Assembly: GCA_021108215.1 (NCBI GenBank)
Contig: JAIORK010000036.1
Span: forward strand, 22,948-86,947
Source: a bacterium
GTDB taxonomy: Bacteria > Oederibacteriota > JAAXVQ01 > JAUVAV01
Length of the DNA: 64,000 bases
Direction: 5' to 3'
The notes beneath the pieces are model-generated. The model saw only the letters and a list, made by a program, of their open reading frames with translations. It did no database searches and was not told the DNA's origin. Made by a program: the position numbers and the translations under genes. Shown here piece after piece: positions 45,886 to 55,176 of the stretch; position 1 is the stretch's first letter; each line of letters begins with the position of its first letter.

Positions 45886-47609
45886 TTTTTTTGTTTCCCG
45901 GTTTTCGCCTTTTTAGCGGCCGCGGTCTTTGCAGCACTCTTTCCGCCACCCTTGGAACCTGATTTATCCGCAACTGTAACTGCCGTGGTTTCCAAAAATT
46001 CTTTGACAGAATGTTTCAGTCCATACTGATCAAAAATTGCATCAATTTCGTCGTAATCCAGTTCTTCGCGCTCTAACAATTCTCTAACAAAGTGATCTAC
46101 AATCTTCCAATTTTTCTTAAGTACCCGAACCGTATCATCATAACATTCCTTCATAATTTTCTCAGTCTCTGCATTCAGCCGTTCCTTGAGTGACTCAGAA
46201 ATCTGTGCCTCAGGCAAAATGGCAAAGTCACCCAAAAAGCCATTGCTGCCCATACCCACCCGCCAGACCATACTATGCGCCATGCCCATGGCATGCTGGA
46301 AATCGCTGGAAACACCGGTAGACGTAACACCAAAGCGGAGTTTCTCCGATACATACCCTGCCAAAGAAACCTTAATATTTGCCATGAGGGTATTCCGATC
46401 CATGGTATACAGCTCTTCGCGCGGCGAATGATGCACCACACCCAGAGCGCCGCCACGGGATATAATTGAGGCCTTGAACACATCATCTGTGGGATGCAGC
46501 AAATACAGGGTTACCAGATGCCCGGACTCGTGATAAGCCACCATCTCCCGCTCATGCGGAGTCATGGTTTTGCGGTGTTCAATCCCAAGTTCAATCCGTT
46601 CAATCGCCTTGGTCATATCCGCATACTCAACTTGGTCACCTCCGCGGCGCATGGCGATCAGGGCGGATTCCTTAATAACATTTTCAATTTCCGCCGGACT
46701 CTTGCCCACGGATTTACGGGCCAGACGGCCTATGTCCAAATCCGGATCATGCTGGATCTTGGACATATAAAATTTAAATAATTCTTCGCGCTCAACCAAA
46801 TTGGGTTTATCAATATAGAGCTTGCGATCAAAACGACCGGGACGCATAAGCGCCTGATCCAGCACATCTTCACTTGCATTGGTCGCGCCAATCACAATAA
46901 CGTTCTCGCGCTTGGATCCCAAGCCGTCCATCTCCACTAAGAGTTGGTTCTGCGTACTGTTGGTCTCCTCGCCGCCGCCAAATTTTGTAAAAGTTCTGCC
47001 GCGCCCAATTACCTCAATTTCATCGATAAAAACAATACACGTTCCTTCCGCATAGGCCAGCTGGCGCGCCTGTTTAAAAAGTTTCCGTACACGCGATGCA
47101 CCCACACCCACAAACACCTCGGTAAATTCGGAACCTGCCACAGACAGAAACGGCACCTTGGCCTCAGTTGCGATTGCCTTGGCCAGCATGGTCTTGCCGC
47201 AGCCCGGCGGACCGACCATCACCACGCCGCGCAGAATTTTGCCGCCAATGGCTTTGAGTTTTGCCCGGTCCGAGATGAGCTGTACAACTTCCCAGGCTTC
47301 CCGTTTGGCCTGCTCCAACCCGATAATATCGGCAAATGTAATATTTACATAGGATGATTTGACTTTCTGTTTTTTCATCTGGGAAAAACCGCCGCGGAAT
47401 ACGGTCATATACAGATATACAAAAATCACCGCATTAAGTGCTGCCATTAAAAGCTGAAGCGGCAGGGTGGCCAGAGTCAAATTCAAATAAAACGATTCCA
47501 ACGACGCCAGTCCGATCACGGTAAAAACCAGCAAAAGGATGACCGCTGTGATGATCAACATCCGCACCCAGTAATTCATCAACCATACTTTAACTCTACG
47601 GTACCACAT
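45882..47609 (-). CDS. ftsH: FtsH-family AAA+ zinc metalloprotease (short extracytoplasmic loop)
   Basis: Two N-terminal TM helices with almost no loop. Walker [12 protein letters not shown] region, HESGH zinc motif, Lys/Ala-rich tail. Confidence 0.85.
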
Positions 47610-47725
47610 AAAAATTAACTCCCTTTTTTAGACCCTCTGAAACTTCGGGGTAAAAATAGCATCACGCCCTGCTCACGGCTGCGTAAATAACTGCTTCATC
47701 TGTCATGCTCCGGAAACGAACTGGA

Positions 47726-48004
47726 TTATCCTTCAACCTTATGGGTCAGGACAACAATCTTGATCGCGCTTTTCCGTTCCCCGTCCAATTCGAGATGCAT
47801 GAATTCCGGACGAAAGGTCAATTCAATTTTATCATCCGTAAGGTAAGACCGGGAAATGGTAATCGCTTTTACTGCCTGATTCACACTTTGAGGACCCATC
47901 GCAACAACTTCAATATCCTTGCCTTCGCGGATATTATTAGCAATCGCACCAGCTACAGTGGCAGGGTTGCTTTTCCCGGCAACTTTGAGAGTGAGCATTG
48001 GCAT
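47726..48004 (-). CDS. spoVS: SpoVS-family protein
   Basis: LKVAGKSNPATVAGAIANNIREGKDIEVVAMGPQSVNQAVKAITISR closely matches the SpoVS pattern. Confidence 0.85.
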   Translation of the reverse strand: MPMLTLKVAGKSNPATVAGAIANNIREGKDIEVVAMGPQSVNQAVKAITISRSYLTDDKIELTFRPEFMHLELDGERKSAIKIVVLTHKVEG

Positions 48005-48086
48005 AGTCGTAAGTCTCCTTTTGCGACGTTATTGAACCGGGACCTAACCGGCGCAACCCTAAATAGGGGCTGATTATTATTTTTAA

Positions 48087-48115
48087 AGTATAGCATATTC
48101 ATGCCTGTATTTCAA
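48087..48115 (-). promoter_or_regulatory. sigma70 promoter of spoVS
   Basis: Minus strand TTGAAA-N17-TATACT. Confidence 0.55.
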
Positions 48116-48194
48116 TTTGACTTCTTTTATTGACGCTGGACTTTTCTGCCCGGAAAACCGGTGCCTGGCACCAAATCCCCGAAGCTTTTATGAA

Positions 48195-48740
48195 TTACTT
48201 TTCTATTTGTACTATATATGGTGGGTCAAGTTTTAAGAGTGCATATGTTTTACGAAGAGTTTTTTCTCCTCCAGATCGAATCAGATATTCACCTCGCGTC
48301 GGGATTGTGTCCTTTCTCCAAGATCCATTTTTATAAAGCCATTCCACCTTGATTCCTTTCAGTTCTTGCAAAACAGGATGTATCACCTCAACAACTTTAA
48401 ACGCTGTTGCCCGTTTTTTTTTGCCAAAAGGGTGAGGGATTTCTACTGTTGATGGGATTGATTGCCATTCCTGATCATCAACACTCTTGTATTGAGTTGC
48501 CTTTGCTTGGACACCTCCGGGATCTTTTGCTTCCGGACTATCTGAACAGAAAGCATAGATGGGTTGGGGTTGTGGATTCGCATTAATGTAGTTAATCCAC
48601 TGTCTAATAAATTCTTCTTTTCTATCTTGAAACGACCATAGCGTCCATTCGTTTGCTTCAATTTCCTTTTCTTTACGCCGAAGAATGTCCTCACGGGTTT
48701 CTCCAGCGTGAACTCCTAAACAGTGCCAAAATCCTAGCAT
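48195..48740 (-). CDS. hypothetical protein (third gene of the TA cassette)
   Basis: 181-aa ORF. Its ATG overlaps the toxin stop (ATGCTAG). No recognisable motif. Confidence 0.6.
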   Translation of the reverse strand: MLGFWHCLGVHAGETREDILRRKEKEIEANEWTLWSFQDRKEEFIRQWINYINANPQPQPIYAFCSDSPEAKDPGGVQAKATQYKSVDDQEWQSIPSTVEIPHPFGKKKRATAFKVVEVIHPVLQELKGIKVEWLYKNGSWRKDTIPTRGEYLIRSGGEKTLRKTYALLKLDPPYIVQIEK

Positions 48741-49099
48741 ATTTTCCCAATCCTCCCCCGATCCTCTTTCTCCTTATCCCCTTTAAAATAAATTTCTATC
48801 AACGCCACTTTATTTTCCGCCGCATAATACGCATAGATCACCCTGATCCCGGAATTCGCGCCCCTGCCTTTCAGAGCCTTGCAGGCGAATTTGCGGGCTT
48901 TGTAGATTTTCGGATTTTCAATGCCTAAATCAGGAATGGATACGATGCCCTGGTTATCCTTATCCAGCTTATGATAGAGCTGAAGCTGAACTTTGATAAA
49001 TACATCCAAATCATCTTCCGGGGTTTTGAATCGTTTCCTCAGCTTTTTTAAATCCTTCTCAAATTCCGGCCAGCGTCTGACCTCACTGAATATTTTCAT
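48734..49099 (-). CDS. RelE/ParE-superfamily toxin
   Basis: KIYKARKFACKALKGRGANSGIRVIYAYYAAENKVALIEIYFKGDKE is typical of RelE/StbE-type toxins. 17-nt overlap with the upstream antitoxin gene. Confidence 0.7.
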   Translation of the reverse strand: MKIFSEVRRWPEFEKDLKKLRKRFKTPEDDLDVFIKVQLQLYHKLDKDNQGIVSIPDLGIENPKIYKARKFACKALKGRGANSGIRVIYAYYAAENKVALIEIYFKGDKEKEDRGRIGKIC

Positions 49100-49901
49100 C
49101 GCTTCGTCTCACTGAATAGGGTGCTGTCCGGTAAAACACGGATTCATATTCAATATTTTTACCCTCCTCGGAGGTCATCCAGGGAACATCAGCATGTGAA
49201 TAATCTTCCATTTGCCTGGCATTCTTATCCGACAGCCGGGCCAAAACATCGTCAATTACTTCCTTTTCATTCGCTGAAAGAACACTTAAATCCGGTTCCT
49301 TTAGCGGCAAATATTTTGTTTGCGGATAGTCAAAGTATTGGCTTTTCACTTTCTCGATTTCATTATTCTTGATCATGTTATCCACAATCACTTTAAATTC
49401 CCGCGGTGTAGGGCCGTGATGATTCTTAATATACGTGGCCCCGATAAGCTGTTCCTCAAACCTTTCATAATAATCGAAGTCCATAAAATACAGGAGTTTA
49501 TAGATAACGCTTTCCCCGATATTGGGTTTTGATCCCACTTTGCCCAGTATATACAATAAAATCTGCTTGAATTTTTTCAGATTCTTCTGCGGCACGTTTA
49601 TGCGAATACCGGGTTTGGTCTCTTTTTCTTCTTTAGTCATTTCCAAAATCACCTGCGGCTCTTTGGAAATATCCATAAGGCTCTCCACCGAGACCCCGAA
49701 TATTTGGGAAATTTTCTTCAACTCTTTTATTGAGACAGCTCTGGTGCCGTTTTCCATTTGAGAAATCGTGGGACGCACCACTTTCAGTAAGTTCGCCAAT
49801 GCCTGCTGACTCATTTCCTGAGATTCCCTCAACAATTTGACATGTTTGCCTATTTTTTTATCAAATTCGCCCACGGTGAACACCCCCTTTTCTATACTCA
49901 C
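49083..49901 (-). CDS. XRE-HTH plus DUF4065 (SocA/Panacea, PanA-type) antitoxin
   Basis: HTH LRESQEMSQQALANLLKVVRPTISQMENG, then the Panacea-like core IYKLLYFMDFDYYERFEEQLIGATYIKNHHGPTP. Confidence 0.7.
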   Translation of the reverse strand: MSIEKGVFTVGEFDKKIGKHVKLLRESQEMSQQALANLLKVVRPTISQMENGTRAVSIKELKKISQIFGVSVESLMDISKEPQVILEMTKEEKETKPGIRINVPQKNLKKFKQILLYILGKVGSKPNIGESVIYKLLYFMDFDYYERFEEQLIGATYIKNHHGPTPREFKVIVDNMIKNNEIEKVKSQYFDYPQTKYLPLKEPDLSVLSANEKEVIDDVLARLSDKNARQMEDYSHADVPWMTSEEGKNIEYESVFYRTAPYSVRRSDENIQ

Positions 49902-50063
49902 TCTACGTCATGTAATTATTCCTGTCAACGCAAAGTTAGCATTTATTACTTTTGTCCCTGGGCTATTTATTAGAGGATGGCTTCATCTTGGTCATGCTAT
50001 CTGGTCAATCCTGAAAAAGTCAAAAATAAAAAAAAGTGGCTGGCACCACTTTCATTTTCTTCA

Positions 50064-50158
50064 AGACCCTCGGCATACTACTTTTTCACAGTGCATCCTG
50101 TTTGAGCTTCCCGAAGGGGGCGAGTTATGCACCAGAAAAAGTAGTATGCCGAGGGTCT
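50064..50158. repeat. 95-nt rod-like inverted repeat downstream of rsmI
   Basis: 24-bp perfect arms AGACCCTCGGCATACTACTTTTTC / GAAAAAGTAGTATGCCGAGGGTCT (50064-50087, 50135-50158) with inner GTGCAT/ATGCAC and GCTTCC-CGAA-GGGGGC pairings. Confidence 0.75.
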
Positions 50159-50184
50159 CCTAAAAAAGAACCGACACCTTGGCT

Positions 50185-51066
50185 CTATTTCTTATGAATC
50201 GCATGGGCCAGTGCATAGACTTCCGGCCGGGGAAGGTTTTTCTGCCGGGCGACACGCGCAATGGCCTGGTTCAGGGTCAATCCGTCTGCCTGCAAACGAT
50301 CCAATTGTTCCTGAATGGATTCTGAGACCACGGACTCCTCAGGATCATGATTGCCGTCAATCACCAAAGTATATTCACCCCGGGTGATTTGGGCTGCATT
50401 TTCAATCAGTTGCGAAATCGTGCCGCTGATATAGTCTTCATGGATCTTCGTCATCTCGCGGCATAACACCGCCGGCCGGTCTCCCAAAATATCAAGAATA
50501 TCCTTTAAAATTTTGTCTAATTTATGCGGCGAGAGAAAAAAAACCAGAGTTTCACTGCGCTGCCTGAGGGTCTCCAAAAAACGGCATCGCGGTCCGGTCT
50601 TGGCATCTAAAAATCCAAAAAATGAGAAGCAATCATTTGGAAACCCGGCACCTACCAGCGCAGTTAACACTGCGGACGGACCGGGTAAAATCTCGGTCCG
50701 CACACCATGTTCGCGGGCCGTCTGTACCAAATAAGCGCCCGGATCGGAGATCCCCGGCATGCCCGCATCGGAAACCAGCGCGATGGTTTTACCTGAACGC
50801 AGGCGGGCAAGAATTTCCGGCGCTTTTCTCTTTTCGGTTTCCTTATAATAACTCGTCAGCGGGGTATGAATATCATAGTAGGATAAAAGCTTGCGGGTAT
50901 GGCGGGTATCCTCGGCAAGTATCAGATCCGCCTCTTTGAGCAGGCGCAAACCGCGCAACGTCATGTCTTCCAGATTACCAATCGGGGTACCGATGAGATA
51001 GAGTGTTCCCGCGCGTTCATCCTGACCGGACGGATGAAACAATTGCGAATTCGGCGTTTTTGCCAT
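50185..51066 (-). CDS. rsmI: 16S rRNA (cytidine1402-2'-O)-methyltransferase RsmI
   Basis: GTLYLIGTPIGNLEDMTLRGLRLLKEADLILAEDTRHT. Confidence 0.9.
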   Translation of the reverse strand: MAKTPNSQLFHPSGQDERAGTLYLIGTPIGNLEDMTLRGLRLLKEADLILAEDTRHTRKLLSYYDIHTPLTSYYKETEKRKAPEILARLRSGKTIALVSDAGMPGISDPGAYLVQTAREHGVRTEILPGPSAVLTALVGAGFPNDCFSFFGFLDAKTGPRCRFLETLRQRSETLVFFLSPHKLDKILKDILDILGDRPAVLCREMTKIHEDYISGTISQLIENAAQITRGEYTLVIDGNHDPEESVVSESIQEQLDRLQADGLTLNQAIARVARQKNLPRPEVYALAHAIHKK

Positions 51067-54852: not shown

Positions 54853-55176
54853 TTAGTCTACCAACATTTCATTGATCACCGCTTTAATTTGCAGACGGGT
54901 TTTGGCACTTAGCTTTCCAATCTTTTTAACCAATCGGCGTTTGTCAACGGTCCGGATTTGATCAAGAACAACCCATCCTTTTTTATTCTGAAATGTCAGA
55001 CCAACTCTGGTGGGATATTTCTTTGATTGTGTGGTCATTGGCGCAATAATAACAGTTGAAATATACCGATTCATTTCATCAGGAGAAATGACAACACAGG
55101 GTCTGGTTTTCTTGATCTCATGACCCATTGCAGGATCCAGACAAATAAGATAAATATCATATTGAGTGATCACCAC
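54853..55176 (-). CDS. mazF: MazF/PemK-family endoribonuclease toxin
   Basis: YDIYLICLDPAMGHEIKKTRPCVVISPDEMN...VIIAPMTT. Confidence 0.88.
   Translation of the reverse strand: MVITQYDIYLICLDPAMGHEIKKTRPCVVISPDEMNRYISTVIIAPMTTQSKKYPTRVGLTFQNKKGWVVLDQIRTVDKRRLVKKIGKLSAKTRLQIKAVINEMLVD

Follow-up and report, generated by a model that had tools for sequence, protein, structure and literature searches.

The known three-component toxin-antitoxin (TA) systems include the TAC chaperone systems, paaR-paaA-parE and mazEF-mazG. PanAT systems were defined by Kurata et al. 2022 (PMC8832971), who found N-terminal helix-turn-helix (HTH) domains in 343 of the PanA antitoxins and listed among the toxins (PanT) ParE and, by HHpred, several RelE/HigB-2/YoeB-like clusters (T14, T28 and T58-T60 in their Dataset S1), one RelE-like pair, T58, having -17 nt between its two genes. 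Their survey admitted architectures of three genes, and 25 clusters of accessory third genes were found in it, which are sporadic and were judged unlikely to play a general role (PMC8832971). We have analysed a locus of this type in a 64,000-nt stretch of a genome of the bacterial phylum Oederibacteriota (assembly GCA_021108215.1, contig JAIORK010000036.1, positions 22,948 to 86,947), hereafter the window, in which three tightly packed genes lie on the minus strand. The original prediction, made from the sequence alone, regarded them as a tripartite TA cassette composed of a Panacea-type antitoxin, a RelE/ParE-like toxin and a coupled third gene for a protein of 181 residues. From the comparison of homologous loci we conclude that the locus is in all likelihood a canonical two-gene type II PanAT module, with an unrelated solitary gene juxtaposed at its 3' end.

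The genes of the block are the following (coordinates are window positions throughout):

49083..49874, minus strand: gene 1 (panA), predicted antitoxin/repressor with HTH_3 and SocA_Panacea (DUF4065) domains, 263 residues from GTG 49874.
48734..49099, minus strand: gene 2 (panT), predicted toxin of RelE/HigB-2/YoeB fold, 121 residues, ATG start.
48195..48740, minus strand: gene 3, 181 residues, ATG start, member of an unnamed conserved solitary family.

The listing of open reading frames (ORFs) places all three where they had been reported, together with the overlaps of 17 nt between genes 1 and 2 (49083-49099) and of 7 nt between genes 2 and 3 (48734-48740, ctagcat on the plus strand, which reads ATGCTAG on the minus strand), and the motif IYKLLYFMDFDYY...HHGPTP is found in the translation of gene 1. 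These are real genes and not chance ORFs, since gene 1 scores above the gathering thresholds of Pfam and genes 2 and 3 have many homologues. The length of 272 residues first given for gene 1 corresponds to the longest reading frame (49901..49083, from a GTG), which is indeed present, but the likely product has 263 residues. The true start is likely GTG 49874, nine codons after 49901, because the best promoter match (see below) would leave the GTG at 49901 outside the transcript, and because orthologues and public gene calls agree: the orthologue N-termini MAEFNKKLGK line up with VGEFDKKIGK of gene 1, and the public calls on identical contigs give a product of 263 residues. The ribosome-binding site AAGGGGG precedes this codon. 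The three-gene arrangement is found in one lineage only, the loci L001 and L002 being identical to the window. A further locus, L003, which appeared to be a 92%-identical strain variant, was discarded, as the differences are concentrated near one contig end, at 1.2x coverage, and represent assembly noise.

The domain composition proposed for gene 1, an XRE-type HTH followed by a DUF4065/SocA core, is borne out by the profile searches. Using the 272-residue numbering, the Pfam model HTH_3 (PF01381) matches residues 22-73 with 48.7 bits (cut-off 23; expectation value, E, 7.9e-13) and SocA_Panacea (PF13274/DUF4065) matches residues 134-241 with 69.7 bits (cut-off 25.7; E 5.1e-19), the latter match spanning positions 2-112 of the 113 of the model; both models are thus above their gathering scores. 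By analogy with what is known of PanAT systems and the RelE family, PanA would bind and neutralise the toxin through its Panacea domain, and would repress the operon through the action of its HTH domain on an inverted repeat around the promoter.

Gene 2 had been called RelE/ParE-like, and this designation holds at the level of the fold but not of curated sequence models. No match at E<=1 was obtained in Pfam, NCBIfam or PADLOC, the curated models that would place a protein in this group (Pfam ParE_toxin, HigB-like and YoeB, and those of NCBIfam) included, and the only library match is to the unannotated phrog_5869 of PHROGs (E 7.9e-5). The protein has more than 3,310 homologues; the 120 listed have identities of 63-100%, and a few of these are named RelE by the Joint Genome Institute (JGI). 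An alignment of 38 sequences (A2) was the basis of both an AlphaFold model and a family profile. The model, with a predicted local distance difference test score (pLDDT) of 85.6, has a beta-alpha-alpha-beta4 topology, with strand 6-9, helices 11-23 and 27-44, and strands 52-54, 64-68, 85-92 and 97-105, that is, the N-terminal strand, two helices and antiparallel sheet which characterize the RelE fold. Comparison of this model with the PDB using Foldseek returned P. horikoshii RelE (1wmi, E 5.9e-4) and V. cholerae HigB-2 (E 1.3e-3), and the top matches also include S. aureus YoeB, T. thermophilus RelE, HP0892 and YafQ. Probabilities of ~1.00 and target-normalised template-modelling (TM) scores of 0.59-0.72 were obtained for the best of them. 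In agreement, the A2 profile matches HigB-2 chains of the PDB at E 0.017. The predicted sheet carries the invariant residues K67, K70, R86, Y89, E102 and K106. As the closest structures are RNases and not ParE, the modelled protein is more likely a ribosome-dependent mRNase than a ParE-type gyrase poison. Judging from the RelE family, the free toxin, which would be released upon loss of PanA, would cleave translated mRNA on the ribosome and arrest growth. Given that the family is very large and yet goes unseen by Pfam, NCBIfam and PADLOC, a profile model would be worthwhile for annotating PanAT pairs of this type.

The pair formed by these two genes is conserved. Eight independent look-ups of gene 2 homologues, 65-81% identical, yielded 20 loci from different assemblies, and an HTH plus SocA_Panacea gene of 256-263 residues lies directly upstream of the toxin in all eight look-ups and in every one of the 20 loci. 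These upstream genes are orthologues of panA in the window (phmmer, E 1e-99 to 1e-151), and they usually overlap the toxin gene by 14-20 nt, with a 3-nt gap in L130-L132. The 17-nt overlap in the window and the recurrence of the pair in each of the look-ups are what the definition of a PanAT pair by Kurata et al. 2022 asks for. Indeed, the pair recurs together with its own promoter and inverted repeat as a unit of ~1.2 kb in many unrelated genomic contexts, as would be expected if the TA cassette regulates itself and is transferred as a whole.

The gene that follows the toxin, on the other hand, is different in every genomic context: a DUF4238 gene (L120), an unknown protein of 205 residues (L121), a convergent ABC permease (L123), a pair of 88 and 154 residues (L126), a RadC_N fragment and then a large methyltransferase (L130), an ORF of 63 residues (L133), a convergent radical-SAM gene (L136), and unknown proteins of 412 and 219 residues (L137 and L138). 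A profile hidden Markov model of the 181-residue family, searched against six-frame ORFs of the 20 orthologous cassettes, gave no match at E<=10.

A side observation concerns short fragments of the RadC N-terminal domain (UPF0758_N), which are present downstream of PanA-toxin cassettes in two unrelated contexts, L126-L129 (4909-5196 in L126-L128) and L130-L132 (3332-3655 in L130). The fragment in L130 shares 41 nt with the 3' end of the toxin gene, and the gene after it encodes an N6_N4 methyltransferase of 855 residues. These fragments suggest that the cassette repeatedly lands ahead of other genes, or near radC.

A comparable picture resulted from the analysis of the locus from the side of gene 3. 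We have examined 116 loci with homologues of the 181-residue protein (35 from a set with one genome per species, 80 from JGI metagenomes and 1 from a contig look-up), all outside the lineage of the window and of which ~100 are non-redundant. None contains a homologue of the toxin, and a PanA gene is found near the homologue in a single one (L026), 4.6 kb away and without this toxin. Neither do other genes accompany the family: clustering of neighbouring ORFs of at least 70 residues within 3 kb (blastp) gave no family present in more than 5 loci, clustering of same-strand ORFs of at least 35 residues within 500 nt (phmmer) gave none in more than 4 of the 100 non-redundant loci, and in five taxonomically spread loci the Pfam domains of the neighbours relate to unrelated functions. 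In annotated loci such as L004 and L140-144 the homologue stands alone between unrelated genes, separated from each by an intergenic gap of ~180-490 nt, and some of the loci are housekeeping contexts; a wider analysis of intergenic gaps was crude and too noisy to use.

The order of the three genes is thus conserved neither from the cassette side (0 of 20 orthologous cassettes with a relative of the 181-residue protein) nor from the other (0 of ~116 loci with the toxin), and the tripartite arrangement that had been proposed does not hold as a conserved linkage. The original prediction had itself named absence from, or lack of linkage to, homologous cassettes as the result that would speak against it, and this is what is observed in both directions. 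Linkage of a third gene to the pair across homologous loci, which marks three-component TA systems, is not found here. As for the functions suggested for gene 3, namely second effector, chaperone/adaptor or sensor, we find no evidence for a role in toxicity, neutralisation or sensing. The existence of homologues without an antitoxin-like partner makes it unlikely that the protein is a second toxin, and the fact that its linkage to the cassette is not conserved argues against a chaperone or adaptor.

The tight coupling between genes 2 and 3 has nevertheless to be accounted for, and the DNA comparisons are informative in this respect. Using blastn, the window aligns with the closest cassette, L120, at 82% identity over 1,144 nt (49891-48748) and with L121 at 73% (49953-48750). 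The homology of the cassettes covers the promoter, panA and the toxin gene up to about codon 117, and ends where the 181-residue gene starts (ATG 48740). At this point both genes are altered. The toxin C-terminus reads ...RIGKIC, whereas orthologues in alignment A2 have ...RIxxxYxx(x), so that a near-invariant Tyr is replaced by Cys and the protein is 2-3 residues shorter. The 181-residue protein starts with MLGFWH, while its relatives have 6-19 additional N-terminal residues (alignment A1, of 15 homologues at 40-49% identity), among them a position occupied by Phe in at least 90% of the members. This truncation is real, since the frame is closed by an in-frame stop 11 codons upstream of the ATG. 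As the junction coincides with the end of the DNA homology and with the loss of coding sequence from both genes, the 7-nt overlap is best read as a putative recombination or insertion scar and not as a sign of co-evolution. A rearrangement or insertion would have joined the 181-residue gene to the end of the cassette, and the event would have clipped the last 2-3 codons of the toxin gene and the first ~6-19 codons of its new neighbour. The tight start/stop overlap should not, then, be taken as evidence for a functional tripartite system, as here it appears to mark a rearrangement junction.

Such a junction raises the question of whether gene 3 is a decaying, 5'-truncated remnant, which lost its promoter and N-terminus upon insertion of the TA pair and is no longer functional. 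Besides the missing N-terminal segment with its conserved Phe and the closed frame, the near-invariant P7 and F8 are substituted, with CL in place of PF. However, the ORF is full length over the conserved core, retains the 40 residues that are invariant in the family and yields a model with pLDDT 90; moreover, the missing segment varies in length and sequence across the family, and the new start codon has a strong ribosome-binding site in front of it. We regard a non-functional remnant as extremely improbable.

Whether the 181-residue gene is expressed together with the TA pair depends on the signals around the block, of which the main ones are the following:

49900..49960, minus strand: cassette promoter and putative operator, a -35/-10 pair with a flanking inverted repeat.
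50032..50053, minus strand: intrinsic-terminator-like hairpin with a U-tract, from the terminator scan, predicted to end the upstream rsmI transcript.
48145..48180, minus strand: hairpin after the stop codon of the 181-residue gene, from the RNA fold of 48100-48200 (z = -3.0).

The best sigma-70-type match on the strand is TTGACA-17-TAGAGT (49928..49900, 10/12 in the promoter scan), and it is surrounded by an inverted repeat, ATGTAA...TTACAT, whose family consensus is ATGTAAnA-N26-TCTTACAT. Alignment of the regions upstream of orthologous panA genes (A3) gives the consensus ATGTAAnAAAATCTAACATTnTnTTGACAAATAATCTTACATAnnnTATAnT, that is, a -35/-10 pair inside the inverted repeat; the -35 element, the spacer and the repeat are kept in 8 unrelated contexts, and farther upstream the sequences are unrelated. 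This conservation, along with the HTH domain, leads us to infer that PanA binds the inverted repeat as a repressor. Upstream of the promoter, the rsmI terminator-like hairpin has a 9-bp stem followed by TTTTTTTTATTTTT in the scan and was recovered when the RNA was folded; it is predicted to insulate the cassette promoter from upstream transcription.

At the other end, no terminator was found by the scan in the interval between panT and the 181-residue gene, and the start of the latter is preceded, at a spacing of 10 nt, by the ribosome-binding site GGAGGA. For these reasons transcription from the TA promoter probably continues into the 181-residue gene, which would be translated from the same mRNA. 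The sole candidate for an internal promoter (48999..48971, 9/12) is no better than the shuffled expectation, with 6 promoter-like sites counted in that scan against a shuffled mean of 5.1. The hairpin at 48145..48180 is likely the 3' end of the read-through transcript in the folded model, its terminator role being inferred only, as it has no canonical U-tract; just beyond it lies a promoter-like site for spoVS (48115..48087, 10/12, with a TG extension). The 181-residue gene would thus ride the TA transcript as a passenger, and its expression would follow that of the TA operon. A scan of 47600-50600 against Rfam found no credible RNA family.

The intergenic region between rsmI and the cassette also holds a very long, near-perfect hairpin (50055-50167, both strands), which immediately precedes the terminator hairpin of rsmI. 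It has arms of 33 nt (24 nt exact) and a 47-nt loop, and its fold energy corresponds to z = -9.2; no second copy occurs in the window, and there is no credible Rfam match. It could be an element resembling miniature inverted-repeat transposable elements (MITE) or repetitive extragenic palindromic (REP) sequences, a recombination site or a structured 3' untranslated region.

Several of these features weigh against a plain juxtaposition of a two-gene module and a solitary gene. The 7-nt overlap, the strong GGAGGA site and the lack of a terminator point to co-expression, so that a lineage-specific functional link is possible. Also, the three-gene block (1.9 kb) has a guanine plus cytosine (G+C) content of 0.39-0.45, against 0.48-0.52 in its flanks, and is bracketed by an imperfect direct repeat (48154-48173 and 50029-50048, 16 of 20 positions, with core CTGGCACCA), each copy of which sits inside a hairpin. 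The low G+C content and the repeat may mean that the block was acquired whole, as a small island. The repeat itself may be an insertion scar of such an island or a product of chance. As regards persistence over time, the exact arrangement is known from the one genome lineage.

In its fuller form, arrival as an island would make the TA pair an addiction or stabilisation module of a small mobile island, on which the 181-residue protein, an independent protein of nucleic-acid-binding or defence type (possibly a PUA-like/YTH-like reader), travelled as cargo. We consider this fuller form distinctly unlikely.

The signals of co-expression bear, on the other hand, on the possibility of a lineage-specific tripartite system, in which the 181-residue protein would have been recruited after the juxtaposition as sensor, adaptor or second effector. 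Such a recruitment is consistent with the start/stop overlap, with the good ribosome-binding site and the lack of a terminator between the genes, with an intact ORF in which all 40 invariant family residues are kept, and with the fact that the cassettes of L130 and L133 also have tightly overlapping, unrelated downstream ORFs, the family often heading variable genes. It is opposed by a linkage which is conserved in neither direction and an arrangement confined to one lineage, as well as by a junction that clips both genes and resembles a scar rather than a co-evolved interface. Furthermore, homologues of the protein occur alone without an antitoxin-like partner, so that a toxin in need of PanA is unlikely, and sporadic third genes were judged by Kurata et al. 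to be unlikely to have a general role. Taken together, we find a recruited third component very improbable, and a two-gene PanAT module with a juxtaposed solitary gene remains our preferred description of the locus.

The 181-residue protein is of interest in its own right. As first noted, it has no recognisable motif: nothing meaningful was found for it in Pfam, NCBIfam, PADLOC or PHROGs, nor in a Pfam scan of 58 diverse relatives, and family profiles built from the 15- and 58-sequence alignments gave no credible match against PDB sequences. Homologues reach E 1e-48, and alignment A1 has 40 invariant columns, which include FWH..G..E, RK..EI, T.WS.Q.R, FCS, DP, PHP and PTR.EYLIR.G. When 1.84 billion representatives were searched exhaustively with a profile, 329 clusters at 50% identity were gathered. 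The AlphaFold run that had been suggested produced a confident model (pLDDT 90, predicted template-modelling score, pTM, 0.86), for which the PDB holds no significant structural neighbour. The family is patchily distributed and is present at similar identity in Bacteroidia, Patescibacteria, Saccharibacteria, Planctomycetota, Acidobacteriota, deltaproteobacteria, Nitrospirae and Armatimonadota, and this likeness across distant phyla indicates horizontal spread. As for mobile replicons, two viral contigs of IMG/VR carry relatives of the 181-residue protein (L146 and L147) and one a relative of the toxin, and neither protein has a match among the PLSDB plasmids. A weak match to the 181-residue protein, 34% identical, is found at 391930-392468 of the uncultured 485-kb jumbo phage LR745208.1.

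A minority of the loci of this family have a mobile or defence-like setting. DDE_3 transposases are present in L004 and L140-144. An HEPN_AbiU2 abortive-infection gene lies directly upstream of the homologue in L026 (5319-6522), an island in which genes for ASCH, RhuM/Fic and Clp protease are present in addition to the toxin-less HTH-PanA gene, and in L145 (824-3507) the homologue is placed between an upstream DUF4238 and a downstream HNH_5 gene. In 4 of the ~100 non-redundant loci a protein of ~180 residues is encoded directly beside the homologue on the same strand (L043 116-661; L100 907-1431; L108 2637-3188; L114 6542-7126), and it has the motif E...D.G[IV]DL[LV]VT...Q[VA]KY, of PD-(D/E)XK type, with sub-threshold matches to Mrr_cat_2, PDDEXK_5 and DUF4365; the two may form a reader-plus-nuclease pair. 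There are also predicted fusions, with ~480 additional N-terminal residues in P0141 (673 residues) and ~150-190 additional C-terminal residues in P0144, P0148 and P0161. Pfam detected no domain in the extra parts of ten longer relatives resembling fusions, which may be real fusions or read-through in gene calling.

The closest known candidates for this protein are, as a lead only, the PUA-like readers of modified bases (YTH, EVE, ASCH and the archaeal McrB N-terminal domain), of which it would be a stand-alone nucleic-acid-reading relative. One may go further and regard it as the founder of a family, so far overlooked, of small stand-alone proteins with a divergent PUA-like/YTH-like reader fold. 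Some members would be teamed with small PD-(D/E)XK or HNH nucleases, and in this genome the gene would have been captured under the autoregulated promoter of a PanAT module. We hold this to be unlikely; if true, expression of the reader would rise upon depletion of the antitoxin, so that in this lineage a TA switch would be tied to an accessory protein sensing nucleic acids, and the pairing of reader and nuclease would resemble type IV restriction. In any case, a conserved and confidently folding family without significant structural neighbour is a modest target for structural genomics or for screens of defence islands.

The surroundings of the block include a second TA-type gene, of the PemK/MazF family, at ~54853-55099 on the minus strand (equivalent to 1-247 of L001), ~5 kb upstream of the cassette and adjoining a gene for a Dus tRNA-dihydrouridine synthase.

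When compared with the described systems, the toxin shares with V. cholerae HigB-2 and with archaeal and bacterial RelE and YoeB, which are ribosome-dependent mRNA endonucleases, a predicted beta-alpha-alpha arrangement followed by a four-stranded sheet, and its core KGKG..SGIRVIY....ELIEIY.K aligns with 'KGKGKRGGSRIIYYF...LLTIYGK' of HigB-2. However, identity to these proteins is only 14-19%, any assignment of catalytic residues would be tentative, and its partner is a PanA instead of HigA, RelB or YefM. PanAT systems resemble the locus more closely, as in both the antitoxin comes first, an HTH is fused to Panacea, the overlap is short and the pair occurs in varied contexts across phyla. The predicted fold of gene 2 also agrees with the RelE-superfamily fold of the PanAT toxins T14, T28 and T58-T60; the family of gene 2 comes mostly from uncultured lineages absent from the RefSeq-based set of Kurata et al. 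The view that a third gene had not been described for such PanA pairs is inaccurate, in light of the 25 accessory clusters and the RelE/HigB-2-like partners in that survey (PMC8832971). Since pairs of HTH-PanA with RelE-fold toxins and sporadic accessory genes were already catalogued, the locus adds little as a TA system. A same-strand third gene packed against the TA pair is a trait that it has in common both with three-component TA systems and with the accessory genes of PanAT systems. True tripartite systems, however, retain their third gene along with the pair, whereas the 181-residue gene is absent from every orthologous cassette examined, and the locus fits exactly the description by Kurata et al. 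of a PanAT pair with a sporadic accessory third gene.

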